From a virus: a stretch of DNA of 64,000 bases. Below are positions 2,139 through 40,028 of this stretch, one piece after another (within the stretch, counting starts at the first letter, position 1; each line of letters begins with the position of its first letter). The translations under genes and the position numbers were made by a program. The notes beneath the pieces are model-generated. The model was not told where the DNA came from and made no database searches. It worked only from the letters and a program-made list of their open reading frames with translations. The stretch lies in the IMG/VR virus record IMGVR_UViG_3300025141_000031. One strand, 5' to 3'.

Positions 2139-3493
2139 ACGTTAACCTTTTTTAATTTTGGTAATTTAATTTTTGGTGGTGAATCATTTTGTCCAGAATT
2201 ATTTAATTTTGGTAGAGTTAATTCTACTCGTTCTGGCTGAGCATATTTACCTAATATCTCAGTAAACTTTTCTGTCATTTTCTCTAGACTAAAATTAGTA
2301 CGAGAATAATAACCTTGTTTTCTTGATCGTTCTAAATATTTTTTATAATGCTTAAATACATCTTTAAGTATTTTAGAAGCATATTGATATTGTACTGTAA
2401 ACCATTTTGATTCTTTCATTATAAATCTATCAGCTGCGGATGGATGTACTTGAGTTAATTGTCCTGGTAACAATGTTGTATATTCGTTATGTAAGAAATC
2501 TAAATGGCCTGACCAATTTGAAACTATTATTGGTTTACCTGTTAATGAAAATTCTAATAACGGTCTTCCAAATCCTTCACCTTTAGTAAATGATACCATT
2601 GCTTTTACTTTAGGATGATTATATAATGAATTCATTTCAGCATCTGATAAATCTCCGTGTAGTAAATATACATTTGGTGCATTATTACCGTATCCTTTTA
2701 GAATAGAAGCTATTTTAGCCATTAACATATCTCTATCTATTATACTAAAAGTCGCTCCTGAAACTTTAAGTATTAAACCTGGTCGTTTTGATGTGCCTGT
2801 ATTTTTAAATGTTTCTAGGAATGTCTTAATAGTCATTCCAATATCCTTTCTATCTTCTCCGATATCACCTTTAATCCAATGTCCTACCACTAGAAAACAA
2901 AAAGATTCTTTTAGTTGTGCCAATTCATCAACTACAGGTTTATCCAATTCATGTACTTTTTTATAAACATCTAGATCTGCACCTTCAAATAACTCTTCTA
3001 TAGGAGTAGTAATTTTTAATTCATCTTCCTTTTGTTTAGTTTGTTCATTTACTTTGTCCCATATAGTTTGTTTAATTATAGTCGATGTATGTTTAGATGT
3101 AGTAATAACTAAATCCATTCTATTACATCCTTGTATACAATCTGCAGGCATTACATTTGATTCTACACCTGCTGTAATTCCAATATTAAATTTACCTGGT
3201 CTTACTTCCGTTTTACCATCAGGAGCCATACAGAATTCGTTTGGAACTGATATTTGTATAAAAATATCTGGTTGTCGGTCAAACTTATCGTTTACAATAC
3301 AATCAATTATCGGTTTATCTTTTGGATCTAATTCATTTAATGCTGTCATTGGACAGTGTCCCCAACGCATTGAAATAATTTTTAGATCATATTTATCCAT
3401 TGCAATTAAACTTCTTGCAATATCTCTTGTATGGTTTCCATACCCAGATCTAGTTGCTACTGGTCCTTGTATTACTACTAACGGTTTTATCAT
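2135..3493 (-). CDS. Glycosyltransferase, GT-B fold (GT4-like)
   Basis: SGYG N-terminal motif, RKDIG, KGEGFGRPLLE (EGFG-x4-E) motif. Confidence 0.85.
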   Translation of the reverse strand: MIKPLVVIQGPVATRSGYGNHTRDIARSLIAMDKYDLKIISMRWGHCPMTALNELDPKDKPIIDCIVNDKFDRQPDIFIQISVPNEFCMAPDGKTEVRPGKFNIGITAGVESNVMPADCIQGCNRMDLVITTSKHTSTIIKQTIWDKVNEQTKQKEDELKITTPIEELFEGADLDVYKKVHELDKPVVDELAQLKESFCFLVVGHWIKGDIGEDRKDIGMTIKTFLETFKNTGTSKRPGLILKVSGATFSIIDRDMLMAKIASILKGYGNNAPNVYLLHGDLSDAEMNSLYNHPKVKAMVSFTKGEGFGRPLLEFSLTGKPIIVSNWSGHLDFLHNEYTTLLPGQLTQVHPSAADRFIMKESKWFTVQYQYASKILKDVFKHYKKYLERSRKQGYYSRTNFSLEKMTEKFTEILGKYAQPERVELTLPKLNNSGQNDSPPKIKLPKLKKVNV

Positions 3494-4947
3494 GTTATAA
3501 CTCCTGGTTGTTCTATTTTATTAGTTTTTTCCATTTTATATAATGTAAATCTTTTTCTTGGCGTCCAATTTTTAAAACAAGTATCAATTGAAGTTTCCAT
3601 TAATTTACACATCTTTTTTGCTGACATATGTGATTCATCTCCCATTACCCATTCATGTCCTTCCATACCACGTTTTTGTCTTTCTTCTATAGGCATATCA
3701 TACCAATATTTAATAGCATTTGCTACATCTCTGAAATCACATCTATCATCGAATATATAAGGTGTCATTGGAGAACCTTGTACTGATCTATTTGATGGAA
3801 ATACTGCTTTTGCCCATCTTGCATGTTTCTTATATGTACCATCATGGTTACTTGGAAATTCTGATGTAAATTCTATCCATTTACCATTTTCATCTTCAAA
3901 TCTCATTTGGTCTTGTAACCCACCAGTAGTATTATTAACAATAGGAGTTCCAATCATTAATGACTCAGCTCCTGATAATCCAAATCCTTCGTTAGATGCT
4001 ATATTTACTGTTACATCAGACATATTATAAAAATATCTTAATTGTTTTAAATCTACTCCGCCATTTGTAACATGTATTTTATAATCAGGACATAATGCCA
4101 TTTTAACTGCTCCTAAATCTGTTCCATTATCATCTCTTGCTTGTGTATTCATTAATAATATACATCTATCTGATTGTTCTTTTGGTAATGTATCACAGAA
4201 TGTTTTATATGCAAGAATTAAATCACCTGGGTTCTTCCTTCTTATATTTCTATTGTTCCAAAATATTACAAAATCAACTTCATGTCTTTTCTTAAAACTA
4301 TCCTGAAATGTATTAAATTCATTCCATTCAGATGATAATTCATTAATTGGATAAAATTCTTTTTCATTAATACCATGAGGAATCCATTGAACTGCCCAAT
4401 CTGGTTTAGGATATTTTCTTAAAACGTTTTTTACAATATTTTGAGTTTGTCTTGATATATTCATTATCAAATCACAAGATTCATAATATGGCTCATTCCA
4501 GAATGGATAAGGAAGATCATCCCAAATATTCAAATACATTAAAGGCAATGTCTGTCTTATATCATGTTCTATTGAATACAACCAACCCCAAAATCTTGGA
4601 TCTGTAAAATGTAGTATTGCATCTGGTTTTTCTATTCTTATAATTTCACGTAACTTAGATTCATTTCCATAACCACTTGAAGCATATATCTTACAATATG
4701 CATATTCTACACCTGTTTGTTTTGCAACATCTGCAGAAATGTCAAATACTTGATTCTCTTGTGGATGTTTTACAGCTGCTCCTAATTGTACCCAATCATA
4801 TTTATCCATAGTTCCGAAGACAAAGTCTCTAGAGACATTTGCAATACCCGAGTGCATTCGTAAATCATCACTTAATAGTAATATTTTTGGTTTCTTTACC
4901 CTGTTTGGGTCTATTTTTTTTAACTTTGGTAACTTTAATGGTTCCAT
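3490..4947 (-). CDS. Glycosyltransferase, GT-B fold (GT4-like)
   Basis: HSGIA, NNRNIRRKN, SNEGFGLSGAES motif; AGGAG SD upstream. Confidence 0.85.
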   Translation of the reverse strand: MEPLKLPKLKKIDPNRVKKPKILLLSDDLRMHSGIANVSRDFVFGTMDKYDWVQLGAAVKHPQENQVFDISADVAKQTGVEYAYCKIYASSGYGNESKLREIIRIEKPDAILHFTDPRFWGWLYSIEHDIRQTLPLMYLNIWDDLPYPFWNEPYYESCDLIMNISRQTQNIVKNVLRKYPKPDWAVQWIPHGINEKEFYPINELSSEWNEFNTFQDSFKKRHEVDFVIFWNNRNIRRKNPGDLILAYKTFCDTLPKEQSDRCILLMNTQARDDNGTDLGAVKMALCPDYKIHVTNGGVDLKQLRYFYNMSDVTVNIASNEGFGLSGAESLMIGTPIVNNTTGGLQDQMRFEDENGKWIEFTSEFPSNHDGTYKKHARWAKAVFPSNRSVQGSPMTPYIFDDRCDFRDVANAIKYWYDMPIEERQKRGMEGHEWVMGDESHMSAKKMCKLMETSIDTCFKNWTPRKRFTLYKMEKTNKIEQPGVIT

Positions 4948-7553: not shown

Positions 7554-9149
<1,596 letters not shown>

Positions 9150-9174
9150 TTATTTATTTTTAATTGTTATTAAT

Positions 9175-9423
9175 TTATTTACTTTTTACTGGTAAGAATT
9201 CTTTATTAATATGTCCACATTCATCACATCTAAATACTGGTACTGGAATGATTTGTTCCTTACCAGTAGGTGATACTAATGGTGATATCTTCTTAAATGC
9301 ACTTACTTGTCTGAAAAATTTTCCTTCGCAATTTTCACAAACAATATCTGTTAAATCATTAAGATCTAACTTTACTTTTGTTTTTGGTTGGTCTTTTCCA
9401 CCCATTCCTATAACTTTTCCCAT
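9175..9423 (-). CDS. Zn-ribbon hypothetical protein
   Basis: CENC...CDECGH, 82 aa. Confidence 0.65.
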   Translation of the reverse strand: MGKVIGMGGKDQPKTKVKLDLNDLTDIVCENCEGKFFRQVSAFKKISPLVSPTGKEQIIPVPVFRCDECGHINKEFLPVKSK

Positions 9424-9430
9424 TTTTTCC

Positions 9431-10357
9431 CTATTTTAATTCATTAATTAGTTTGACCATAGTGGCCATGATATGTATTTCTTTATCAACTGCAAATGCA
9501 TCTTGATATTGTGATTCAGCTAATATCAATATAACACTTGCAATATGTCCTTTTGCATATTCATCTATCTCATCAAATAAAAATTTATATAATGCAGTAA
9601 AATCTCTTACCTTACTATCATTTATTAATTGACGTATACTTTGAAAACATGTTTTCTTATCTTCTTTTTGTAAGATATTTAATAATTTAGTCATATAATT
9701 TGCTTGAACTAAACTCTCTTTATCTATTTCTAATTTACCTTTTATTACTTGTCTTTGAGCTGAATTAAGAACTCTTCTAATATCTGGATACCCACTATTG
9801 ATTAGAGTTACCAGATCTTCCATTTTAAATTCTACATTCTCATCTTTTAAGATTTCAACAATCCTTTTTGCTACTTCTTTTTTATTAGGTGGAGTGATTC
9901 CAAATACTTGACATCTAGATTGTATCGGGTCTATTATCTTTTCAACATAATTACATGTTAATATAAATCTAGTTGTTTTAGAAAATGTTTCCATTAGATT
10001 TCTTAATGCAGCTTGACCATTTGGAGTCATATAATCTGCTTCATCTAATATAACAATTTTCCATCGCTTAAATCCAATTGTACTTGCAAAATTCTTTACC
10101 TTGGTTCTAACAGTATCAACATTATTCTCATCAGATGCATTTATATACATGATATCTGCGTCTACATTACCTGCAATTATCTTAGCTAATGTTGTCTTAC
10201 CAGTTCCAGCTCCTCCATAAAATAATAAATGAGGAACATCTCCATTTTCAAGATATAACTTTACTTTGCTAATAACTAATTCATTACCAACATATCCATC
10301 TAATGTACTTGGTCGAAACTTTTCAACCCATAATGTATTTTCTACGTTTCCAAACAT
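9431..10357 (-). CDS. Clamp loader large subunit (T4 gp44 / RFC-like AAA+)
   Basis: WVEKFRP, GGAGTGKTT, ILDEAD, PIQSRC. Confidence 0.95.
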   Translation of the reverse strand: MFGNVENTLWVEKFRPSTLDGYVGNELVISKVKLYLENGDVPHLLFYGGAGTGKTTLAKIIAGNVDADIMYINASDENNVDTVRTKVKNFASTIGFKRWKIVILDEADYMTPNGQAALRNLMETFSKTTRFILTCNYVEKIIDPIQSRCQVFGITPPNKKEVAKRIVEILKDENVEFKMEDLVTLINSGYPDIRRVLNSAQRQVIKGKLEIDKESLVQANYMTKLLNILQKEDKKTCFQSIRQLINDSKVRDFTALYKFLFDEIDEYAKGHIASVILILAESQYQDAFAVDKEIHIMATMVKLINELK

Positions 10358-10358
10358 A

Positions 10359-11078
10359 TTAATTAGCTTGTAATTGTACTAGATAATAAGTTGATGAATA
10401 ATCTTTACTTGTAAATGATACTCTTGCAAGGCCTGCTGAAGAAACTTCTATAAATCCTTCTTCTGCATCTTTATTTGCAACTAGTATTTCTTTAAATAAA
10501 TTAGCTGAAAAACATGTTGCTTTAAGATCACTTTGCTCTCCTTCAGGAGTTGTTGGCCATGTAATTCTATTTGTATTCAAGGTTGAATAATTTAGAATCA
10601 TGTTAGTTCCTAACGCATCACTTTCAATTGCAAAATTTTCTGTTTCTGGTAATGCATTCTTTGATTTAACGAACTTATCTGCAAAATCTTTTGTTAATTT
10701 AATTTTAACATTAAAATCTGGCAATTGTTTCATTGCTGGTACTTGTCTAATTACCGATAAATCAGCTAACATAAATGTTACATTTGTTGTCTTATCTGAT
10801 AAATTAATCGAAAATGCGGTTCCATCTGCATTATTAACTCTCATTGTAACATCATTATCCAATGCAGTTAATAATTTTGTTAATTGTGAAGTTGCATATA
10901 CTCCTAATGTTACATCTTCAATATCAAAATTATCCATTGATACTGATCCTACTACGTTTTGATCGTCAGTAATAAAATTACATGACATTTTTTTATTTTC
11001 AATATCTAATCTAACAGAATTTGCATTTCCTGCTAAATGATATTTATCAATAAAACTTGTTAATTGTTTCTTTTCCAT
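10359..11078 (-). CDS. DNA sliding clamp (T4 gp45-like)
   Basis: 239 aa; LGVYATSQL, EVSSAGLARVSF..YYLV C-terminus; adjacent to clamp loader. Confidence 0.8.
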   Translation of the reverse strand: MEKKQLTSFIDKYHLAGNANSVRLDIENKKMSCNFITDDQNVVGSVSMDNFDIEDVTLGVYATSQLTKLLTALDNDVTMRVNNADGTAFSINLSDKTTNVTFMLADLSVIRQVPAMKQLPDFNVKIKLTKDFADKFVKSKNALPETENFAIESDALGTNMILNYSTLNTNRITWPTTPEGEQSDLKATCFSANLFKEILVANKDAEEGFIEVSSAGLARVSFTSKDYSSTYYLVQLQAN

Positions 11079-11090
11079 TGTTTACCTTTT

Positions 11091-12275
11091 TTATTCGAAA
11101 AATTGATTAAATACTTCATTGTTTACTAAATCTCTTGTACTACCACCAAACTTATCATATAATTGTCTATTCTTGTTATAGATATGAATTGCCTTGTCTG
11201 GGTCTTGGAACATTTCTTCCATGCTCATTAGTATTGCATAGAAATCCCTTGGAACTACTGTTTGTAATAATTCATTATGACATTTTACTATTTCCTCTAC
11301 TTGTCTAACAGTTTCGTTAAATACAAATAAATTATTTAATGTCATCTTCATTGTTACATCTCCTTTATAATTTGATACCTCACCAAAAGTCATTCCTTCA
11401 CAAACTGGATGTCCTAATGGATTAGGAACTAAATCATCTGCATTATACGGAAGATTTTCTCCTTTTGGAAAATATAAATCAGTAAAAGTCATTTTACTTA
11501 ATTGAGGAGAATGTAAATGAGTTCCATATACAGGATATAAACCTGGAGAACTTGAATCTGTTGATATTTGTATTCTACCTCCATGATATTTGTTTACCAT
11601 CTTTTGAAAAAAGCTTAATAAAAAGAAATCTGATATCTTTGATATACCTAATACATGTATAAATTGGTTTCTTGCTTTTTCAAATTCTCTATTCTTTATC
11701 ATTGGGACTAATGCCGACATGAACATAGTAACTCTCTTCTGAGCTCCTCCTATACACCATCCATTAAATTCAAAGTCTTTCATTTTTTGATACCATGTTT
11801 CATATTCTTCCACATTATTACCTTGAATAACATTTAAGAATTTACATTTACCAGATTGATTATCTGCAAAATACTTAAAGTTATCATAACTAATATCCAT
11901 ACATTCATGAAACTTTCCATCATATTTTGCTCTAGGTGGTATATCTAAATTAACTCCTAAATCACAATTTGCTTCTAACCAATCAAATATAGTTTTCTTA
12001 AATGATGGGTCCCATTTAATTGCTCCTGTAGCTAATTGAAACCCTCCGGAATCACCTAATACTAACACGTCATCATCTAATCCATATCTTTGTCTTGCAT
12101 CTGCCCATTTATAATGATGTCCTGCAGTAATTAGAAAATATGGATGTCTCCATCTTTCAGGAAAATCCTTATCATAAAATCTACAAGAGAGTCCTGGTTT
12201 AACTTCTTTGTTCTTTTTAAAATCTCCTGCACAACCTCCTGCAGATAATGATGGGTAATAAATTAAATCTTTCAT
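11091..12275 (-). CDS. dpdA: TGT-fold guanine transglycosylase, probably DNA-acting (DpdA-like)
   Basis: DSGGFQ, NLDIPP, VIQG, GWCIGG, HVLG, STDSSS TGT motifs; FolE, QueD and QueE nearby. Confidence 0.75.
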   Translation of the reverse strand: MKDLIYYPSLSAGGCAGDFKKNKEVKPGLSCRFYDKDFPERWRHPYFLITAGHHYKWADARQRYGLDDDVLVLGDSGGFQLATGAIKWDPSFKKTIFDWLEANCDLGVNLDIPPRAKYDGKFHECMDISYDNFKYFADNQSGKCKFLNVIQGNNVEEYETWYQKMKDFEFNGWCIGGAQKRVTMFMSALVPMIKNREFEKARNQFIHVLGISKISDFFLLSFFQKMVNKYHGGRIQISTDSSSPGLYPVYGTHLHSPQLSKMTFTDLYFPKGENLPYNADDLVPNPLGHPVCEGMTFGEVSNYKGDVTMKMTLNNLFVFNETVRQVEEIVKCHNELLQTVVPRDFYAILMSMEEMFQDPDKAIHIYNKNRQLYDKFGGSTRDLVNNEVFNQFFE

Positions 12276-12276
12276 A

Positions 12277-13440
12277 TTATTTTTCTTGTTCTAGTAATGA
12301 TTCACATAATTCTTTTTCATGCCAAATACATAATTCATTTTCATAATCATTGGCAATAATATAACCTTCCATTTGTCTTCCTAAATCTGATCTATCAACT
12401 ATATGCGGATGAACTTTAGGTGTTTCTAATGCATCTTCAATTGTTTCTAATGCATCCTGAACATCAAATGGTTTATACATTCTATCTGCATCTATAAATT
12501 CTGGAAAACTTCTAAAATATGGAAATACTATATCAGCACCAAATGCAGTTGATTCAATAACTGTCCAGGATACATAATCTTGTAATGCAGAATTAAATTG
12601 AATTTTACAAGTTGCTAATTCTGTATAATATTCTTCTTTTGTTAATCCCGTCATTAATTTAAATCTAGGTTGTTCATCAGCTAAATCTTCTAATGCATCT
12701 ACGACGCCTGGTAACATACTTTTGAATCCTTTTCCTGATGTAGTTACGTGCCATTCATAATCTGGGTGATTAGCTAAAAATGCTTCTGCAACTTTCATCA
12801 TAAAGAAAGGGTTCTTCTCTTTATCTAATCTAGATGAATATACAATTGTATTTTTCTTTGTATATTCTCCTGTTGGTAGTTTTTCTAATGTTGCTTGTTT
12901 ATGTATTGGTAATGAAACAACATGTATTGGAGCTTCAAATCCTGCCGCTCTTAATTGTTCTTTATGAATAGAACTTCCTACAAATATACCAGTTAATCTT
13001 TTATCTAAACCTAATTCATATGGTCTCATCCAATCCTTCATAGGATATGTAAAATCATATTCATCTACTGATTGTGCATGTAGCATTGTATATACCTTTA
13101 CGTTCTTATAGCCATATAGGTCTAATGCATACCAAATGGCTTCGACTCCTGGTGTCCAAAAGTCTTGCAAGAATATTATATCACCATCTTGGACTTTGTC
13201 ATCATACAGCATTTGTAAAAAGTTTTGGCATTGAGATAAACTATATTTTCCTCTGCCGATTGCATCTAATACTGCGCCAACTTTAATCTCACAATCTGGG
13301 TCAAAGTCTCCTTCTACATCAATAAAATTTAACTTGTCTTCATACCGTTCAAATGTTTTTGGCATCCATTCTTTACATAACTGATATGTATACCTTGCTT
13401 TTAATGGCTCTAGGCCAAAATAAAATAAATTTCTTTTCAT
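12277..13440 (-). CDS. GT-B-fold glycosyltransferase-like protein linked to the transglycosylase
   Basis: YSSRLDKEKNP, SALQDYVSWTVIES (divergent E-x7-E region), RSFPE. Confidence 0.7.
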   Translation of the reverse strand: MKRNLFYFGLEPLKARYTYQLCKEWMPKTFERYEDKLNFIDVEGDFDPDCEIKVGAVLDAIGRGKYSLSQCQNFLQMLYDDKVQDGDIIFLQDFWTPGVEAIWYALDLYGYKNVKVYTMLHAQSVDEYDFTYPMKDWMRPYELGLDKRLTGIFVGSSIHKEQLRAAGFEAPIHVVSLPIHKQATLEKLPTGEYTKKNTIVYSSRLDKEKNPFFMMKVAEAFLANHPDYEWHVTTSGKGFKSMLPGVVDALEDLADEQPRFKLMTGLTKEEYYTELATCKIQFNSALQDYVSWTVIESTAFGADIVFPYFRSFPEFIDADRMYKPFDVQDALETIEDALETPKVHPHIVDRSDLGRQMEGYIIANDYENELCIWHEKELCESLLEQEK

Positions 13441-13446
13441 AATTTT

Positions 13447-13866
13447 TTATTCTTTAATTCTATCAAATTTATAATCATCTGGATTAATCTCCATCATATT
13501 ACATTTCGTGATTTGATGTACTCTATACCAACCTGCATCTATAGATAATGTATCTGTCTTTTTAAGTTTTGATACATGAACATCTGGTATTCTATATATA
13601 ACATGAGCTCTATTGAAAATAGACATTGGAATCTTTTCCATTGTCTTTTCATTAGCTTCTATTGTGACATATTGTTTAGTTTCTAGGATATCATGTATTT
13701 CATCCCAATTACCATGAACACATGCCATTTCAATATATTCAATTGTAAAATAGATATGTGGATACTCTTTATAGTTTTTAGGTACTTGTCCTCTAACAAA
13801 TACCGTTTCTATATCAGATAACCTACCTTCTACTTCTTTTCCATACCAATAACTTTTTCCGTACAT
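13447..13866 (-). CDS. Hypothetical protein, first gene of the GT/transglycosylase/clamp operon
   Basis: 139 aa; GKEVEG and HIYF motifs; own promoter at 13883-13912. Confidence 0.65.
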   Translation of the reverse strand: MYGKSYWYGKEVEGRLSDIETVFVRGQVPKNYKEYPHIYFTIEYIEMACVHGNWDEIHDILETKQYVTIEANEKTMEKIPMSIFNRAHVIYRIPDVHVSKLKKTDTLSIDAGWYRVHQITKCNMMEINPDDYKFDRIKE

Positions 13867-13882
13867 ATTCTTATTTTAATTT

Positions 13883-13912
13883 AATATAATAAATCTTTTG
13901 CAAACAACCAAA
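13883..13912 (-). promoter_or_regulatory. Class I promoter
   Basis: TTTGGT-N18-TATATT. Confidence 0.75.
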
Positions 13913-13937
13913 TAATTTCATCTAAAAGTTAACTAAA

Positions 13938-14270
13938 CTATTTAGTTAATCCTTTTACTAAATCCTTATTCGGATTGATTGTTTCATCCAATTTATGGAC
14001 TTCAGACCAAACGTTATCAAAACGTCTATCTGTACTGCTTTCAACTTGAACTTGATATTCATCTATTCGTCTGTTAATAGAGTTATCACCTTCTTCTCGA
14101 TCATTAATTTCTGTGTCAATTTGTCTTTCGAATTGTCTTTCAAAATCAATGAGTTCCATTCTTAATAGCTCCAGATCATTGACCCTTCTGCTCAACCTTA
14201 TCACACCCGCGACCGCATACGCTAACGCACCCACTCCAAGTGTACTTAAAACTGTTAAAATTGTTTCCAT
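13938..14270 (-). CDS. Membrane-anchored coiled-coil protein
   Basis: N-terminal TM helix followed by a charged helical region. Confidence 0.6.
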   Translation of the reverse strand: METILTVLSTLGVGALAYAVAGVIRLSRRVNDLELLRMELIDFERQFERQIDTEINDREEGDNSINRRIDEYQVQVESSTDRRFDNVWSEVHKLDETINPNKDLVKGLTK

Positions 14271-14307
14271 ATTGTTTCTCTCTTATTTATCTAATTGATG
14301 GAATCAT

Positions 14308-16791
14308 TTAATTGAATGCAAAAAACTTTCCTAAATTATTATTTTCTGGGATTCTACCCCAATTCATTGCTCCATAAAAATCATTCAATTTGTTAGCAAA
14401 TGCAGATGTAAATACTTTATTATAATTTATATTATCCTGCACAAATTTTTCTATTGGAGTTGGATCTTCAAATCCTTTCATTGCTATTGTATCTAAGCCC
14501 ATATTATTAGGTATAAGATATGTCCATTTTATTTTTTCACCGTTAATGATCTCTCGAACATTTTTCACTTTATGATGTTTCAACATATCATTATAATTTA
14601 ATGCCGATTTAACATGTACTGGAGTTCCTTTCATTCTTACTGCAAACATGCCATCACCCTTTCTTTGCCATTTTTTAATATTCTTTACACCAATCGGAAA
14701 CATAATATCAATTAATGGTAATGTTTTCATATACTCTTTGAAGTTAAGAATTTTATCATCAAGTTCTTCTTTAGTAATATCATTCAAAATATCCTCTAAT
14801 ACTTCAGCCATAAATTTTCTAAAGGCTGGTGGAAATGAAGACCTAACAACATCTAATCCTTTAACATCTAATTTTGATACGGTATGTCCTTCAATATTAA
14901 TTATCCATTGTGCATACCTTTTCTTTGCTATCCATAAACCAGCCTTTGCAACATTTTCTTGTTTAATATCAAACTTATGAATATTTACATTATGAAATCT
15001 ATCAGCATATATATCATATGATCTATTAATAAAATCCTGTACTTCATCTGCTACTTCAATTGTTTTATCCGCCATCCATTTTTCATCTGTTATATCAAAC
15101 TTTGGATATCGGTGTTTTATAATTGGTAATGATGAAAAGAATGTCGAATCTGTATCAGTATAAATACAATAGTCTTTATTTTTACCTAATTCTTTTGTAT
15201 AAAATTTATTACCAATATCTGCTGTAAATTTAATTAATTGTTGTCCAGTACTTGTAATGGCTACTGCATTATCTGGGTCATTGAATCTAAAAGTTGGATT
15301 ACCTAAAACTCCATAAAATGAATTAAGAAGAATCTTTGTTACTAATTGTAATCTATCAAAATATTCTGCTTTGGCATCATCTCCTTCAGATTCATATTTC
15401 TTTCTTAAATTTTTATATTCAACTCTTTCTGCAAACCATTTTTCAAGTATAGATGATATAAAACCTTTTTGTTTAGTATCATATACAACTCCATTTGCTG
15501 CAATTGAATATTTATTTTCTGTTAAATATGATCTTAATTTTTCAGGCGATTCCCAACCGTCCTTATCCATTGAATATTCCATTGGAATATTTTTGATGTA
15601 TTTATGTCCATCAAAGTCTTCAATCTTACCTATTTTAGTTTCTGGAGAAACGTTAAGTGTCATAATGATACTAGGATATAAAGATGTTAAATCAAGATCG
15701 TATACCCATTTATATCTACCTGGATTAGGTGCTTTTACAAATGCTCCTAATAAATCTACATGTTTTATTTCATCATGCCTAGGTTTATTAGGTGCAACAA
15801 TTCCTAATCGTTTCATGTATGTTAATGCAGCTCCATCTAAATATCTAGTTGGAAATAAAAAGTCTTCATATGGAACATGTCCTTTATGACATATACCACG
15901 AGCTAAATCCATCAATTTCATTTTCTGGTCTATTTCATATACTAGATCAACATCATTCATATTATAATCAATATAACCTTGGATATCATTTTTCATCAAA
16001 TCATCCAACGTTCCTTCATATTTCATTTTACCTTTACCTAATTCTTTTTGAGATATAGCTTCTAATGAATAACTAGACTCTTCATTATAAGTAAAGTTTT
16101 TATATAATGCCATATAATCTAAACATGATACTCCAGATATTCTATATCTATTTCTATGTTTTAACCAAATAACATCTTTAATAGGAGATAATGTTCTTGC
16201 TTGAGATTCTCCTAATATATGACATATTCTATTATATAAGTAAGGAATATCAAAAAAGTCAATATTCCACCCCGTAATTAATGTAGGCATTATCTCATAA
16301 TATGTTACTAAAAATTTGGATAGTAATGTTGCTTCATCTGGACAAGATATTGTTTCGAAATTACCTTTTTTAGTTGAAGGAACTTGTCCTGCTTTATCTA
16401 ATATCCATACAAATTTTTGATCTCCTGCTTCATCATAAATTGCAATTGAAGTAACTTCATTTTGAGCCTCTTCTGGAGTAGGAAATCCATTTTCTATATC
16501 CACCTCAATATCAATAAATAAAGTTCTATGGCCTGTTGATATCTCATCTGAATCTGTATATTGATCTATTAAAGTTCTTATTTCAGGGTTAAGATCTGAT
16601 TCATATAATCCAGGAGCTTCTTGATCAGGATTCCATACTTTATCTACACGAGTTCCATCCAATGTTGTTAATGCACCAGAAGGATTCTTTGCGTATGCAT
16701 ATGGTTTATACTTTATCTTAAGGTGTCCCTTTACATCGTCCCATATATGGACTGTATTATTACGACGTTGATATGCTACTGCTTGATACAT
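14308..16791 (-). CDS. DNA polymerase family B (T4 gp43-like) with 3'-5' exonuclease
   Basis: FIDIEV, GWNIDFFD, DLTSLYPSII, KILLNSFYG, YTDTDS, KKRY. Confidence 0.97.
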   Translation of the reverse strand: MYQAVAYQRRNNTVHIWDDVKGHLKIKYKPYAYAKNPSGALTTLDGTRVDKVWNPDQEAPGLYESDLNPEIRTLIDQYTDSDEISTGHRTLFIDIEVDIENGFPTPEEAQNEVTSIAIYDEAGDQKFVWILDKAGQVPSTKKGNFETISCPDEATLLSKFLVTYYEIMPTLITGWNIDFFDIPYLYNRICHILGESQARTLSPIKDVIWLKHRNRYRISGVSCLDYMALYKNFTYNEESSYSLEAISQKELGKGKMKYEGTLDDLMKNDIQGYIDYNMNDVDLVYEIDQKMKLMDLARGICHKGHVPYEDFLFPTRYLDGAALTYMKRLGIVAPNKPRHDEIKHVDLLGAFVKAPNPGRYKWVYDLDLTSLYPSIIMTLNVSPETKIGKIEDFDGHKYIKNIPMEYSMDKDGWESPEKLRSYLTENKYSIAANGVVYDTKQKGFISSILEKWFAERVEYKNLRKKYESEGDDAKAEYFDRLQLVTKILLNSFYGVLGNPTFRFNDPDNAVAITSTGQQLIKFTADIGNKFYTKELGKNKDYCIYTDTDSTFFSSLPIIKHRYPKFDITDEKWMADKTIEVADEVQDFINRSYDIYADRFHNVNIHKFDIKQENVAKAGLWIAKKRYAQWIINIEGHTVSKLDVKGLDVVRSSFPPAFRKFMAEVLEDILNDITKEELDDKILNFKEYMKTLPLIDIMFPIGVKNIKKWQRKGDGMFAVRMKGTPVHVKSALNYNDMLKHHKVKNVREIINGEKIKWTYLIPNNMGLDTIAMKGFEDPTPIEKFVQDNINYNKVFTSAFANKLNDFYGAMNWGRIPENNNLGKFFAFN

Positions 16792-16997
16792 TAAACTAAT
16801 TCTTCTATTATTCCAACCATTTCACTTAATATAAGAAAAATAACTGACATTACCAAATTAAATGGCAACAATCCATATCCTAATATTCTAATTCCTGATT
16901 TAATAAAACTTATAATCTGATGCTTTCTTGCATCTGGTAATTGTTGTTTATTATCTTTGGTCCATTTATCCGTTTTTCCGTTATAAAATCCTTGCAT
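16791..16997 (-). CDS. Small membrane protein
   Basis: 68 aa with hydrophobic C-terminal half; TAATG coupling to polB. Confidence 0.6.
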   Translation of the reverse strand: MQGFYNGKTDKWTKDNKQQLPDARKHQIISFIKSGIRILGYGLLPFNLVMSVIFLILSEMVGIIEELV

Positions 16998-17000
16998 ATT

Positions 17001-17507
17001 CTAATTTATTTTGTAAATATTTCTATAATTTCTTTTTAGTCCGTTATCATCTAAACCATAACCTACTACCCATTCTTTATCTATTTCAAAACAAAAATGA
17101 TCTACTGGTGGACTATCTTCTTTTCTTTTTAATAAGGTAACTATTTTTACTGCTGCAGGCATCATATCATTAACTCTTAATAAAATTTCTAACATTGTTT
17201 TACCTGTATCAACTATATCATCAACAATATAAACGCTCCTGCCTTTACAATGTAACTCTAGATCTTTTGTAAATTTAACTCCGCCTGAATTATCTTTTCC
17301 TTCATATGATTTAGCTCTAATAAAATCTATTGATACATCTATACCCATATCTTTAACTAAATCTGTAAAGAACATGAATCCACCATTTAATACACATATC
17401 ATTACTGGTGGTAATGAATCTCCTGAAGATTTATGTTCTTCTGATATTTTATGTGCCATTGCTCTGACACGTCTTTCTATTTTATATTCTGGTATTAATA
17501 TTTTCAT
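17001..17507 (-). CDS. hpt: Hypoxanthine-guanine phosphoribosyltransferase
   Basis: CVLNGGFMF, VYIVDDIVDTGKT PRPP loop, WVVGYGLD..RN. Confidence 0.92.
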   Translation of the reverse strand: MKILIPEYKIERRVRAMAHKISEEHKSSGDSLPPVMICVLNGGFMFFTDLVKDMGIDVSIDFIRAKSYEGKDNSGGVKFTKDLELHCKGRSVYIVDDIVDTGKTMLEILLRVNDMMPAAVKIVTLLKRKEDSPPVDHFCFEIDKEWVVGYGLDDNGLKRNYRNIYKIN

Positions 17508-17593
17508 TTTTTGGTTTGTCCGTCACTAAATCCTGTTTTCCATCCATACCATAATAACCCTAAGAAAAATAATCCTGTAAATAATCCGTCCAT
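17504..17593 (-). CDS. 29 aa single-TM micropeptide
   Basis: MDGLFTGLFFLGLLWYGWKTGFSDGQTKK*; start overlaps the folE stop (TAATG) and stop overlaps the hpt start (ATGA). Confidence 0.6.
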   Translation of the reverse strand: MDGLFTGLFFLGLLWYGWKTGFSDGQTKK

Positions 17594-18249
17594 TAATATC
17601 CTTTTACAAATTCATAATACTCATTTCTTGTAGCAGGATCATCTTTAAATGCACCAGTTAATTTACTTGTCTTCATACTCGCACCACCATGTTTAACTCC
17701 TCTACATTGCACACAATTATGAGTTGCATCAATCATTACGGCTACACCGTTATTATCTTCGATGATAGTATCCATTGCATTATGAATTGCAACTGTTAAT
17801 TGTTCTTGTATAGCACCTCTTCTTGCAAAATGTTCTACTAATCTATTTAATTTAGATAAACCAATTACATGACTATCTTTTCCTGGAATATATGCAACAT
17901 GTACTTTACCCATAATGGTTTGATGATGGTGTGAACACATACTAGTTAATGGAATGCCACCTTCAAATACCATACCATCATATCCATCACTCGGAAAGGT
18001 TGTTATACTTGGTGGAGCTTCATATCTTCCAGACCATAAATCATTTACATATGCTTTTGCAACTCTATAAGGTGTTTTATTTGAATTTGGGTCATCTTTC
18101 CAATCCACTTTTAATGCATCTAAAAACTTTCCAAATGCAACACCTGCATCTATAATCATTTTTGATTTTTCATCTTCTGTTAAAGGTCTACCTTTTGCAA
18201 CACCATTTGCAAATCCTTCCTTTACTAATTCTAAATTTAATCTTTTCAT
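17593..18249 (-). CDS. folE: GTP cyclohydrolase I
   Basis: TPYRVAK, SMCSHH, GLSKLNR, IQEQLT, HNCVQCRG. Confidence 0.95.
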   Translation of the reverse strand: MKRLNLELVKEGFANGVAKGRPLTEDEKSKMIIDAGVAFGKFLDALKVDWKDDPNSNKTPYRVAKAYVNDLWSGRYEAPPSITTFPSDGYDGMVFEGGIPLTSMCSHHHQTIMGKVHVAYIPGKDSHVIGLSKLNRLVEHFARRGAIQEQLTVAIHNAMDTIIEDNNGVAVMIDATHNCVQCRGVKHGGASMKTSKLTGAFKDDPATRNEYYEFVKGY

Positions 18250-18545
18250 ATTGATTTCATAACTATTTCTGATTCTCTTACTAGAATATATCTTTTATCA
18301 TCTAATGTTACCTCATTACCATTTTTACCTGATAATAATCTATTAGGAACTAATACAGTATCATCTTCTTTGCATGACATTGCAATTCTATCTCCTGTTT
18401 GAGTATATATTCCTGGACCTACTGCAATAACTTTTGCATACCCATATTCGCTTTCTGAACTCTTTAAGATTAATCCTGATTTTGTTTTTTCTTGTCTTTC
18501 TTCTGCTTTTAATAAAAGCTGGTCACCCATTGGTTTCATTTTCAT
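18246..18545 (-). CDS. groES: Co-chaperonin GroES
   Basis: MKPMGDQLL, KTKSGLIL mobile loop, VIAVGPG, LVRESEIV. Confidence 0.92.
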   Translation of the reverse strand: MKMKPMGDQLLLKAEERQEKTKSGLILKSSESEYGYAKVIAVGPGIYTQTGDRIAMSCKEDDTVLVPNRLLSGKNGNEVTLDDKRYILVRESEIVMKSI

Positions 18546-18562
18546 AATTTTTCTTTTTTTTA

Positions 18563-19336
18563 TTATACCATTCGTTCTGTATCATATGCTATAATATGAT
18601 CTCTACCTGTCATATTATAACCATGTTTTGCTACCATTTCAAATACTTTAGGATACATTTCAAGTAATGTTTCTCTATTATCTCCTGCAGGCATTATATA
18701 TGTTTTATCTTTAGGAGCTCCTATCAATGTTCTAAAATTTTCTATTTCTTCAAGATTTTCTTCTGTTCCATCCCATACTGGTTTGTAATGATAATCTTTA
18801 TGAAACATTATCATTTGCTTCATTGCGTCAAGATTTAATCTTTTCTTATTATGAGTATCAATAAATCTTTGATCTACCACTCTCATTCCTGGAGTCATTA
18901 TTCCTAATTTTGGACAACTATTTGCAAATTTAGGACTTAAACTAATTAAATCAATTGGATAATCTGTTTCTACAAAATGACTACCTTCAGTTTCAATTGT
19001 AATAATAATTCCTCTTTTATGTGCAAAATGTGTTAACTCATTGACCAATGCTGGATGCATTGTTGGTGATCCGCCTGTTAACATCATTTCTTTAATTTGT
19101 GGGTTTTCATCATAAATGTTAATTACATCATTAAAGGTAAGCTTTCCTTTTTCTGGATGTATTGATGTATACCAACTGTCACACCAACCTCCTTCTCCAA
19201 ACCAACATCTATGAGTACATCCTGTTGTTCTAACACAAACAGTTGGCATTCCAATCCTACTTCCTTCTGATTGTACGCACCTGTATAATTCTAATACAGG
19301 TAATACTTTATTATAATCTTTTATTCTTTTATTCAC
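18563..19336 (-). CDS. queE: 7-carboxy-7-deazaguanine synthase (radical SAM)
   Basis: VQSEG, RTTGCTHRC..WCDS, LTGGSP, IETEG, SLSPK. Confidence 0.9.
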   Translation of the reverse strand: MNKRIKDYNKVLPVLELYRCVQSEGSRIGMPTVCVRTTGCTHRCWFGEGGWCDSWYTSIHPEKGKLTFNDVINIYDENPQIKEMMLTGGSPTMHPALVNELTHFAHKRGIIITIETEGSHFVETDYPIDLISLSPKFANSCPKLGIMTPGMRVVDQRFIDTHNKKRLNLDAMKQMIMFHKDYHYKPVWDGTEENLEEIENFRTLIGAPKDKTYIMPAGDNRETLLEMYPKVFEMVAKHGYNMTGRDHIIAYDTERMV

Positions 19337-19817
19337 TATATATTGATGAATTTCTATCGGCTTCCCAACATTCTACTTTTACTACTTTTACTCTACCTCC
19401 TCCTGTTAATGCCATTCGTTCATTAAATTTATCATAAACTAATTTAGCACAAGATTCAGCTCCCATTGCATCCATAATTCTTAAATCTAAAAGACCTAAC
19501 TCTTCCATCATCTTAAATGATTCTAATTGTGGATCATCTTTTTCTATTAAACATGTATGATCAAACATATAATTCATCCAATCTTTTAGGCCATTTCCTG
19601 GAGTTGGTTCTGCATCTGTAGATTTGAATCCACCATAGTCCATAATCCAATTCATTTCATCTAATTGTTTAGATTCCATTATTTCATTAGATTCAAACCA
19701 TACTTTAAACTTTAAAGCATATCCATGTAATAACTTACAATGTGAGTGTTGAGCTTTATGCTGTCTCAGTGCTACTGAATAATTATCGAATATTTTTGTT
19801 GATTGATACTTTGCCAT
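19329..19817 (-). CDS. queD: 6-carboxytetrahydropterin synthase
   Basis: HSHCKLLHGY, MDYG, FDH, GAES, ECWE. Confidence 0.9.
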   Translation of the reverse strand: MAKYQSTKIFDNYSVALRQHKAQHSHCKLLHGYALKFKVWFESNEIMESKQLDEMNWIMDYGGFKSTDAEPTPGNGLKDWMNYMFDHTCLIEKDDPQLESFKMMEELGLLDLRIMDAMGAESCAKLVYDKFNERMALTGGGRVKVVKVECWEADRNSSIYSE

Positions 19818-27274: not shown

Positions 27275-28051
27275 TTATTCGTTAAACAAATCATCAAATG
27301 CCGCGCTGACATCATCGACTTTGTTTACTCCTGTTGTAACTGGTTCTTTCTTTTCTGTTGGTTCAGATGGTGTTGAAGCTGGATCTACGGTCTCTTCACC
27401 TTCTGGGTTCAACCAAGTTGCTAATGCATCTTTTAATTCATCATATGATGGCTCTTTAAATATATCGGATAAATTAGGTTGATTATCAGTAGCTGCTGTT
27501 GCAACATTACTATCTTCAGATATTGCTGATTGATTAGGTTTTACTCTAATAGTAGTCTTTGGAAACTGTCCAGCTCCTTCTGCAGGTGTAAATTCTACTA
27601 AGATATCTCTACCATTCATTGGATCTGTAATATCACCATAATCTGGATCTGCTATTACTCCTAAAAGTTCTTGATAAACTAATTTACCAAATCCCCAAAA
27701 TTTAACACCTTCTGATTCCTTACCTCTTACTATAACAGGAGCATAAGTTCTCATTTTAGGTTCCATCTTCTTACCTAATTTCCATTCATCTGAATTACCA
27801 GAAGATTTTAATTTTTCAGAAAATTCTACTACTGGATCAGGACGACCATGAGTCACCGGTGAAAGATAGTTTCTTTTACCTAAGTCATAATGAAAGTACA
27901 ATTCATTGAATGGATTGTCTTTGTTGTGCTGATAAGGTACGATTCTGATTATTTGTTTGCCTGGTTCAGGCTTCCATAAGTTTGACGTTCTGTTGTTCGT
28001 CGTTTGTAATTGATTAAGCTTTGCCTTAATCGCGTCTAAGTTAATTGCCAT
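27275..28051 (-). CDS. Single-stranded DNA-binding protein (T4 gp32-like)
   Basis: LWKP..IRIVP, VKFWGFGK, DITDP..GRD, acidic tail AFDDLFNE. Confidence 0.85.
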   Translation of the reverse strand: MAINLDAIKAKLNQLQTTNNRTSNLWKPEPGKQIIRIVPYQHNKDNPFNELYFHYDLGKRNYLSPVTHGRPDPVVEFSEKLKSSGNSDEWKLGKKMEPKMRTYAPVIVRGKESEGVKFWGFGKLVYQELLGVIADPDYGDITDPMNGRDILVEFTPAEGAGQFPKTTIRVKPNQSAISEDSNVATAATDNQPNLSDIFKEPSYDELKDALATWLNPEGEETVDPASTPSEPTEKKEPVTTGVNKVDDVSAAFDDLFNE

Positions 28052-39500: not shown

Positions 39501-40028
39501 TTTAGATCCATGTCTTGAATTATGAATACCTTCTGGTGCTGTTAATAAATTACTTGCAAGTCTTATTGGATTATATGCTCTAGTTGGTCGAATCTTTATA
39601 TTTGATTCTACATATGGATTAGATGCTTGTAATCCAACTTGTTTAATATTCCATAAAATACCTTTTGGAGATATCATAAATTTAGCAAATCTTAATGTGT
39701 CTTCTGCTAACCTAGCTGCAAATGCTACAAGTCCTCCTCTGACCATCATATTATCTGGAGATGTTCTTCCACCAGGTCCATAAAATTGTACATCACCACC
39801 TCTACGTTGTATTCCTCTTATTATAAATGGTTGGTCTGTTGCAACACCTAATGATAACCTATTTACATTTGGTGCATCATATATATGGAATTTATCATAC
39901 TGCTCCATAATTTCATTTTCATGAAATGATGATATTTTATTCTGGATCTTTTCTTGTGGATATTTTCCAGGAGCTTGATTTGTTAATCCTTGCCAAGCTA
40001 AGTTTGATGTCATACTAATTAAACCCAT
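36582..40028 (-). CDS. Large baseplate / tail-tube-initiator-like protein
   Basis: Follows tape measure; C-terminal FRA.I.SISDSFSPEW..IGRAD..RTISLDL..LTLGDIY..PWEI tube-fold-like domain. Confidence 0.6.
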   Translation of the reverse strand: MGLISMTSNLAWQGLTNQAPGKYPQEKIQNKISSFHENEIMEQYDKFHIYDAPNVNRLSLGVATDQPFIIRGIQRRGGDVQFYGPGGRTSPDNMMVRGGLVAFAARLAEDTLRFAKFMISPKGILWNIKQVGLQASNPYVESNIKIRPTRAYNPIRLASNLLTAPEGIHNSRHGSKVIQGKYEDVQKELLNSDAEAVTKNRLARLKIEMFGDGAPASLDQAPPTDLLGTIAQGISNFVEPLQNAFSNFDGSEISELSGPGGPKSVYGIGYTTIRRTVVTGTGLKDNLGNAYWGIHYASTTPYESEDVPGSPRTLENTGRPGNSIEKTFNNPGSTGEYKKDKGAFLPSKDATTGGTGVKNVLNIFSPNNDNEFYESGYIQSDGPRGGRFISTETTPEKVLEAETLKRPKVDITTGLLGDDGKTIHEGTPESDDNTFAIGTRYLESNSPAQNVSKKTAGGGQQVEPHSPGGGRYVGTSDDASEETHQRAKNTEDKDLLEHSHKYHLYQNREDGYPEGYYNLINANSGPRGKPIGGSKHNIYTSIEQENELVRTLIDSKKLTEHIHTFVHGHSSTYPIQSSALIEHIKGGYLEHFLRSTPVIGEDWDVDDRISLYGLIDPNGDASNTNTPQIRKSAERVFEPGFPVNMHKEAKLIAARPVTGLNEVQVGEAIFNYFTPDLKFFTGNTKEQIDEGPSHDYKSLRLLLEEYKGGDPSTGTPFVWIYGGDDPSLVPTYNDKSYSSKYTSASPKKGPSPDAGQVAISDQESKQLEAIDAEIVSKLDPMQNPDARPDETSGTKTIGGKPKSSAGTPLVYNYMNYSEIRDAAKQTGTVAGTKKIQEFRRAVSTVVKGEIKLRNRDMLGYGGANQHDTLNRLPVGGKPIISDLVPFYISMHGSQTCYFRAGINSISDSFSPEWNQEKEIGRADPKLILTGWGRTISLDLTLAAGSKRELSPMWDKINTVAGWTAPKYHSNGYTGTFVNLTLGDIYDNIPCYISTFSVDMDSETPWEITAGQRMPKYATVSLELQYVGSSIPQRGGIFFGGSTFKGDDVQANADANVEQKASNFDAIDDLIEGLPPGVNHIADKPYNMAKDILGDVGDGVVSAGDNVLDFILPGDQSGDNAASSKISGVAEKAFSKESGKESNLSNPFD

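Follow-up and report, generated by a model that had tools for sequence, protein, structure and literature searches.

A polymerase-like C-terminal tail on a predicted phage transglycosylase suggests coupling of DNA modification to replication

A divergent transglycosylase in a replication module

The window, that is, the whole 64,000-nucleotide stretch analysed from IMG/VR virus record IMGVR_UViG_3300025141_000031, has a G+C content of about 30% and carries nearly all of its genes on the minus strand, including all of those around the feature studied here (Table 1). In the order of transcription, queD, a queE-like gene, a groES-like gene, folE, a purine phosphoribosyltransferase gene and a small open reading frame (ORF) lead into the gene for a family B DNA polymerase (PolB), which is followed by a 110-amino-acid ORF, a 139-amino-acid protein of unknown function (p139), a GT-B-like glycosyltransferase (GT), the transglycosylase, the sliding clamp, the clamp loader and an 82-amino-acid zinc ribbon. 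The TAA stop codon of the transglycosylase gene is separated by 12 nt (AAAAGGTAAACA) from the ATG of the clamp gene, which confirms the 12-bp spacing on which the original prediction relied; its account of the locus was correct as written, except for the strand, as the genes are on the minus strand. No terminator-like sites were found in the region 9000–17200.

We fetched 80 viral loci as a synteny sample. The order PolB–p139–GT–DpdA–clamp–loader–zinc ribbon recurs in around 50 of them, whereas divergent loci have the order DpdA–PolB–clamp instead. The GT and the 139-amino-acid unknown keep their place between PolB and the transglycosylase in most loci, and the GT occurs in two subtypes. Reading by eye also revealed a GroEL-like chaperonin (530 amino acids) and a GroES-like co-chaperonin (99 amino acids), the second of which lies inside the deazaguanine operon.

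Table 1. Positions of the genes and C-terminal features of the window that are discussed in the text.
Feature	Position	Strand	Basis or remark
GroEL-like chaperonin	7554-9146	minus	read by eye
Clamp loader large subunit, gp44/RFC-like AAA+	9431-10357	minus	phrog_168 1.1e-83; Pfam AAA, DNA_pol3_delta2, Gp44_lid
Sliding clamp, PCNA/gp45 fold (239 aa)	10359-11078	minus	predicted fold; no sequence-family match
Transglycosylase (394 aa)	11091-12275	minus	fold and active-site motifs
Predicted disordered linker and clamp-binding-like tail (residues 379-394)	11094-11141	minus	pLDDT, conservation, modelled contacts
Tail core NEVFNQFFE	11094-11120	minus	within the transglycosylase C terminus
GT-B-like glycosyltransferase (GT)	12277-13440	minus	Pfam Glycos_transf_1 4e-4
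Unknown, 139 aa (p139)	13447-13866	minus	between PolB and GT
Family B DNA polymerase, gp43-like (PolB, 827 aa)	14308-16791	minus	phrog_262 2e-191
PolB tail NNNLGKFFAFN	14311-14343	minus	PolB C terminus
Small ORF	16791-16997	minus	directly before PolB in transcription order
Purine phosphoribosyltransferase, FolE, GroES-like, QueE-like radical SAM, QueD	17001-19817	minus	PF00156, PF01227, PF04055, PF01242
Purine phosphoribosyltransferase	17001-17507	minus	PF00156 5e-25
GroES-like co-chaperonin	18246-18545	minus	read by eye
gp32-like SSB	27275-28051	minus	PF08804 5.5e-14

The AlphaFold model of the 394-amino-acid transglycosylase (pLDDT 89, pTM 0.90) has the (beta/alpha)8 barrel of TGT enzymes. 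In Foldseek searches it matched arcTGT (1J2B; E = 2e-10), DpdA (7UI4, a DNA preQ0 insertase; E = 4e-8) and human and bacterial TGT (around 3e-8). D75 (in GDSGGFQ), D111 (in LDIPP), Q151 and D240 (in DSSSP) are invariant in the family (37 sequences), and the D75 and D111 motifs align with DSGSFQ and LDIP of arcTGT. Three aspartates are invariant in TGT and DpdA, serving as acid/base, in base recognition and as nucleophile; in Salmonella Montevideo DpdA, the active-site residues are D95, D130 and D256 (PMC10164549). Judged from sequence alone, D75, D111 and D240 would correspond to these residues, with the assignment of D240 as the nucleophile resting on its position only.

For the transglycosylase, neither Pfam (even at E = 10) nor PHROG returned a match, and NCBIfam gave only weak ones, to TgtA (3.6e-5; 22.4 bits against a cut-off of 350) and to DpdA NF041059 (6e-4; 18.7 bits against a cut-off of 200). 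PF01702, present in many relatives at 46–51% identity, is absent from the window protein. A profile search of PDB sequences yielded marginal matches only, to arcTGT for the transglycosylase (0.021) and to PCNA for the clamp (0.15). Because Pfam and PHROG were blank and these profile matches were marginal, fold prediction was needed for both proteins. The designation 'DpdA-like' in the original prediction is therefore supported by fold and motifs but not by any curated family. On the strength of its predicted structure, the transglycosylase is a very divergent, previously unclassified TGT/DpdA-like branch that resembles arcTGT. Membership of DpdA3 was considered and rejected, as hhalign against phiST CGPG_00065 (259 amino acids) gave a probability of 0.15%; the transglycosylase family profile found nothing in phiST or CP220, and searching CP220 with the phiST DpdA3 protein did not reveal a DpdA3 there either.

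The family comprises 498 word-index matches and 959 cluster representatives at E ≤ 1e-3, nearly all of them from metagenomes or uncultured aquatic phages. Two parts of the arcTGT architecture are missing from the window protein. The C-terminal tRNA-binding domains are absent (394 amino acids, compared with 576–582 in arcTGT), and the structural zinc site (Cys-Cys-Cys...His) is replaced by N-x3-H-x2-C ... LNN, whereas relatives at 57% identity or less mostly retain C-x3-C-x2-C ... LHN (the arcTGT form being C-x-C-x2-C). Throughout the sub-clade of the window, this region (residues 285–320) reads N-x3-H-x2-(C/S/Y) ... LNN, and such proteins would be zinc-less TGT-fold enzymes.

The product of the gene downstream, 239 amino acids long, also lacks a family match in Pfam and PHROG. 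Its AlphaFold model, made from 25 homologues (pLDDT 93.8), has the two-domain fold of a clamp protomer, and every top Foldseek match is a PCNA (E around 1e-12; TM 0.72–0.79, with one quoted at 0.78). Because the model matches PCNA clamps, the label 'sliding clamp', which had been given to this gene from the outset, is right. In two complete relatives (G002 and G003; loci L020 and L043), the replisome is gp43/gp45/gp44-like, and G003 has a gp62-like protein at 39532–39981; the T4 late sigma factor gp55 (phrog_234) was not detected in either genome.

The FolE, QueD and QueE genes, as annotated from sequence, would supply 7-carboxy-7-deazaguanine (CDG). Two complete related genomes lack QueC. This absence, together with the presence of FolE, QueD and QueE, makes it likely that the inserted base is CDG-derived, its identity being an inference. 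The purine phosphoribosyltransferase gene adjoins folE, queE and queD; its product could convert guanine freed by exchange into GMP, feeding FolE. The conserved, divergent GT-B protein may modify the inserted base further, for example by glycosylation, and in view of this GT the candidate nucleosides are dCDG, dDG, dADG or a glycosylated derivative.

The C-terminal tail and its polymerase counterpart

The transglycosylase ends in ...STRDLVNNEVFNQFFE (last residues NNEVFNQFFE) and PolB in ...IPENNNLGKFFAFN (last residues NNNLGKFFAFN). These are the tails that had been reported, and both match N-x-x-h-x-x-F-F, in which h is a hydrophobic residue. In the transglycosylase, V/F-N-Q-F-F at residues 388–393 places a hydrophobic residue and then adjacent aromatics at a terminus that is predicted to be disordered (pLDDT below 50 for residues 378–392). 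Among around 72 real genes in the window, only these two encode proteins with an h-x-x-F-F C terminus.

Conservation of the tail extends across the family. We compared 117 full-length homologues, all of at least 46% identity, with a background of 220 genes from a complete related phage: h-x-x-aromatic-aromatic occurs in the last 12 residues of 115 of the 117, as against 12 of the 220 (about 5%), and FF in the last ten residues of 104 homologues and six background genes. An FF or LF ending is kept by many representatives of 50% clusters, down to around 28% identity. Column by column, conservation covers the last helix and an FGG, lapses over the next 8–10 residues and returns at F389, F392 and F393; this alternation, together with the low pLDDT, is characteristic of a short linear motif held on a flexible tether. 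The alignment of homologous C termini proposed with the original prediction therefore came out in its favour. Its reading of the motif as PIP-like holds for h-x-x-F-F, which is family-wide, but not for the leading asparagine as a stand-in for glutamine: position 1 of the canonical PIP box, a Gln, is N386 in the window and K, A, V or D in homologues. This Gln is also absent from T4-type clamp epitopes.

The position of the motif varies. In some relatives it is internal and an acidic extension is present; in others a polybasic tail takes its place. We rejected the idea that the tail is conserved as an overlapping ribosome-binding site or promoter of the clamp gene, because the motif is also kept in loci that have PolB or other genes downstream, and in proteins in which it is internal. 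In the complete genome G003, other proteins ending in FF (an endonuclease, a baseplate protein and small unknowns) are not established as clamp clients. The endonuclease (160 amino acids; phrog_945, 1e-40; 104979–105461, corresponding to 9979–10461 of locus L087, minus strand) ends in DPKRFFS and may be another clamp client, or its ending may be due to chance.

The transglycosylase tail also varies together with that of PolB. In the main clades, the transglycosylase ends in FNKFFKF and PolB in AKFFSFGK. Closer pairs are found elsewhere: KKINNLFKF and KKINSLFKF (L057), KMDALFD and KMDGLFW (L070), and MIETFFDF and KIESFFEF (L051), for the transglycosylase and PolB, respectively. Transglycosylases of the 500-amino-acid form have FNNLFE at an internal site, with an acidic extension after it, and their PolBs end in FNSLFE, FNKLFDFE or FESLFG. 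A switch from FF to LF is seen in several separate lineages. In a permutation test that used one representative per PolB lineage (less than 60% PolB identity, n = 10), tails from the same phage had a similarity of 20.1, compared with 10.7 ± 2.1 after shuffling (p around 1e-4); ancestry is not fully removed by this design. With the aromatic pair excluded, so that only the flanks were scored over the same ten lineages, the values were 9.3 and 2.3 ± 1.9 (p around 1e-3). Gene conversion could be an alternative source of the similarity. The co-variation with PolB indicates a shared partner only, and does not say which partner that is.

A structural precedent exists for the polymerase tail. The thumb of the window PolB aligns with residues 720–884 of the 903 of RB69 gp43, which leaves a tail of equivalent length, and residues 883–903 of RB69 gp43 are a PIP-type clamp-binding peptide that was co-crystallized with gp45 (PMC3012046). 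Read from the T4 genome, gp43 ends in SLDFLFG and gp55 in SLDFLYEAND. A gp55 homologue bearing the motif, which would have served as an internal control, was found neither in the main clade nor in the two complete genomes; that of the distant genome G005 ends in ISHYYKT, which is only loosely similar to the tail. Separately, the gp32-like SSB of the window ends in SAAFDDLFNE and its relative in G003 in ASAFDDLFNN, a hydrophobic-acidic tail that is as like the T4 clamp epitope SLDFLF as it is like an SSB tail.

A predicted clamp complex and alternative readings of the tail

The original prediction had proposed modelling the clamp trimer with each peptide. This was run with residues 355–394 of the transglycosylase, which include the tail, and the model passed its controls: the ipSAE was 0.66, 0.62 and 0.66 in three runs, compared with 0.00 for the best of three control predictions. 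The same mark was attained by 58 of 80 solved complexes and by 2 of 110 mismatched pairs; our alignments and trimer set-up differ from those of this calibration. At least 55% of the contacts agreed between runs. The pLDDT of the partner was at least 49, and its own fold is uncertain because the value fell below 50 in at least one run. Confident contacts from the tail involve L383–N385, V388, F389 and Q391–E394, and on the clamp, residues 39–43, 114–120 (the interdomain loop), 191, 215–217 and 232–237 (the C-terminal strand). The corresponding pocket of the RB69 clamp is formed by Tyr39, Ile107, Phe109, Trp199 and Val217 (PMC3012046). The modelled position of the tail thus matches the canonical peptide pocket of the RB69 clamp, in a prediction without binding data. 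The many solved PCNA–PIP and gp45–peptide complexes, if memorized by the model, may also account for the pass.

We consider it probable that the transglycosylase is a DNA guanine transglycosylase tethered to the clamp by a PolB-like tail, with base exchange coupled to replication. The evidence for this consists of the fold, the conservation of the motif, the co-variation, the synteny and the passing complex model. The computational checks proposed with the original prediction both came out positive, and no outcome that it had named as a refutation was encountered. In the mechanism that we propose, a transglycosylase from a T4-related marine myovirus would exchange guanine in DNA. Its catalytic TIM-barrel domain would be followed by a flexible linker of around 15 residues and then by a short h-x-x-F-F peptide that imitates the C terminus of the family B polymerase encoded by the same phage. 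Like the polymerase tail, this peptide would occupy a hydrophobic pocket of the clamp, beneath the interdomain connector loop. Once the phage clamp loader has placed clamps on replicating phage DNA, they would carry the enzyme along the fresh duplex and raise its local concentration on phage DNA, so that replacement of G by a CDG-derived 7-deazaguanine would be coupled to replication. Actual binding, processive or replication-coupled action and selectivity for phage DNA are inferences. The tail that the transglycosylase shares with PolB suggests that DNA modification is physically coupled to replication.

Given that the co-variation with PolB does not identify the partner, the shared tail might instead bind another replisome hub, such as the gp32-like SSB, the helicase or the clamp loader, so that recruitment to the fork would proceed through a different partner. 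The gp32-like protein has a hydrophobic-acidic tail of its own (AFDDLFNE), and there may therefore be several tail-mediated contacts in the replisome. We nonetheless think a different hub unlikely, because the homologous RB69 and T4 polymerase tails bind gp45 (PMC3012046, PMC2988020), the model puts the transglycosylase tail in the canonical clamp pocket while controls score 0.00, and in most loci the clamp gene comes directly after that of the transglycosylase.

The tail could also be an intramolecular or oligomerization element, or a stability tag, with its likeness to PolB being coincidental or compositional. A genome of around 30% G+C favours codons for F, N and K, TGT enzymes are dimers and a similar ending occurs in 4–5% of unrelated genes. 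Against this, the tail is predicted to be disordered and detached from the fold, and it follows the changes that the PolB tail undergoes from lineage to lineage, that from FF to LF among them; it is, moreover, retained whatever gene lies downstream, PA5oct included. We regard such a structural role as distinctly unlikely. That the enzyme modifies tRNA, like arcTGT and bacterial TGT, and sits in a replication operon incidentally, is very improbable even though its best structure and sequence matches are tRNA enzymes (arcTGT 1J2B/1IQ8; NCBIfam TgtA, 3.6e-5), given its lack of the arcTGT C-terminal tRNA-binding domains, its strict placement in the replication module, its polymerase-like tail and the fact that the phage TGT paralogues studied so far all act on DNA (PMC6884629, PMC10516641). 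DNA as the substrate, which the original prediction favoured over tRNA, remains an inference backed by context only, namely the embedding in a replication module in around 50 loci and the adjacent FolE, QueD and QueE genes.

Cultured relatives and known systems

In a phage collection, tblastn gave only weak matches to the transglycosylase (up to 25% identity), in PA5oct-like, Pseudomonas putida, Vibrio GR7B/GR11A and Sinorhizobium Phosso phages and in a few Xanthomonas and Erwinia phages. PA5oct EST35_0316, a TGT-like protein of 540 amino acids annotated as hypothetical (2462–4084 of locus L096), contains SFNSLFD followed by an acidic extension. It is encoded around 1.1 kb downstream of a PolB fragment (159–1298 of L096) that ends in HFDSLFGW. 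The same phage encodes FolE and a clamp loader of the T4 type (1e-82); searching it with our clamp profile returned no clamp, a blank that is uninformative. Given the motif-bearing EST35_0316 and FolE, 7-deazaguanine may occur in PA5oct DNA, and because this phage is cultured and has the same arrangement, genetics is possible.

Not all of these relatives carry the motif. The proteins of Vibrio GR7B (2081–3697 of L095) and P. putida Illi-2 (2366–3736 of L097) have long Lys/Ala-rich polybasic tails without FF, and such tails may provide an alternative, clamp-independent tethering to DNA. These Lys-rich tails hint at a C-terminal appendage that can be swapped as a module for targeting DNA. Bacterial DpdA requires the DpdB ATPase. 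A broader version of the clamp-tether reading, in which deazaguanine insertion is co-replicative through the clamp, near-complete and phage-specific replacement of G is achieved without a DpdB-like ATPase, and the C-terminal appendages (clamp peptide, clamp peptide with acidic extension, or polybasic tail) are interchangeable DNA-targeting modules, is put forward only tentatively, as a conjecture that stops short of being probable.

DpdAs insert 7-deazaguanines into phage DNA, replacing from less than 0.1% to 100% of G depending on the subfamily, and are regarded as post-replicative (PMC10516641). How they find DNA, and why replacement spans so wide a range, is unexplained (PMC10516641), and the tail offers a testable targeting mechanism. 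Divergent DpdAs may require their cognate clamp and loader in heterologous tests. The window enzyme shares with the phage DpdAs (bDpdA and DpdA1–4) the TGT fold, the three aspartates, the association with FolE, QueD and QueE and the phage context (PMC6884629, PMC10516641, PMC10164549), but it falls below every curated DpdA or TGT threshold and has no similarity to phiST DpdA3. Full-text literature searches found no paper that connects a sliding clamp with DpdA or with the insertion of 7-deazaguanine, and the combination therefore looks new: the type of motif is known, but the class of client that bears it is not, and this client belongs to a DpdA-like branch that had not been classified before.

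T4 gp43, gp55 and gp33 are textbook cases of proteins that bind the clamp through C-terminal epitopes. To our knowledge, a base-exchange enzyme is not among the known clamp clients, which are polymerase, late sigma factor, co-activator, RNase H and ligase. The window proteins resemble gp43, gp55 and gp33 of T4 and RB69 in having a hydrophobic peptide at the extreme C terminus and near-identical tails on unrelated proteins. The clamp epitope of T4 gp55 has the same architecture, a short terminal peptide after a variable flexible linker (PMC2988020), and the RB69 peptide binds a hydrophobic pocket of the gp45 clamp (PMC3012046, PMC2988020). Like some DpdA homologues, gp55 (SLDFLYEAND) has a short extension past the motif. 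Unlike in T4 and RB69, the carrier in the window is a DNA base-exchange enzyme, and its h-x-x-F-F is nearer to the PIP box than is the S-L-D-F-L-F of T4.

In eukaryotes, the PIP boxes of DNMT1 and UNG2 recruit these DNA base and modification enzymes to PCNA on newly replicated DNA. As in the system proposed here, a base-flipping DNA enzyme is brought to fresh DNA by a PIP-type peptide. The eukaryotic enzymes differ in having another fold, with N-terminal or internal PIP boxes, and their task is to maintain or repair DNA, not to replace a canonical base on a large scale. Phage family A polymerases fused to uracil-DNA glycosylase (PMC13697223) likewise couple a base-processing enzyme to the replicase in phages with modified genomes, but by gene fusion instead of a clamp peptide and with other chemistry. 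If the clamp tether is borne out, a DNA hypermodification enzyme would join the clients of the sliding clamp, as a viral parallel to the coupling of DNMT1 and UNG2 to PCNA.
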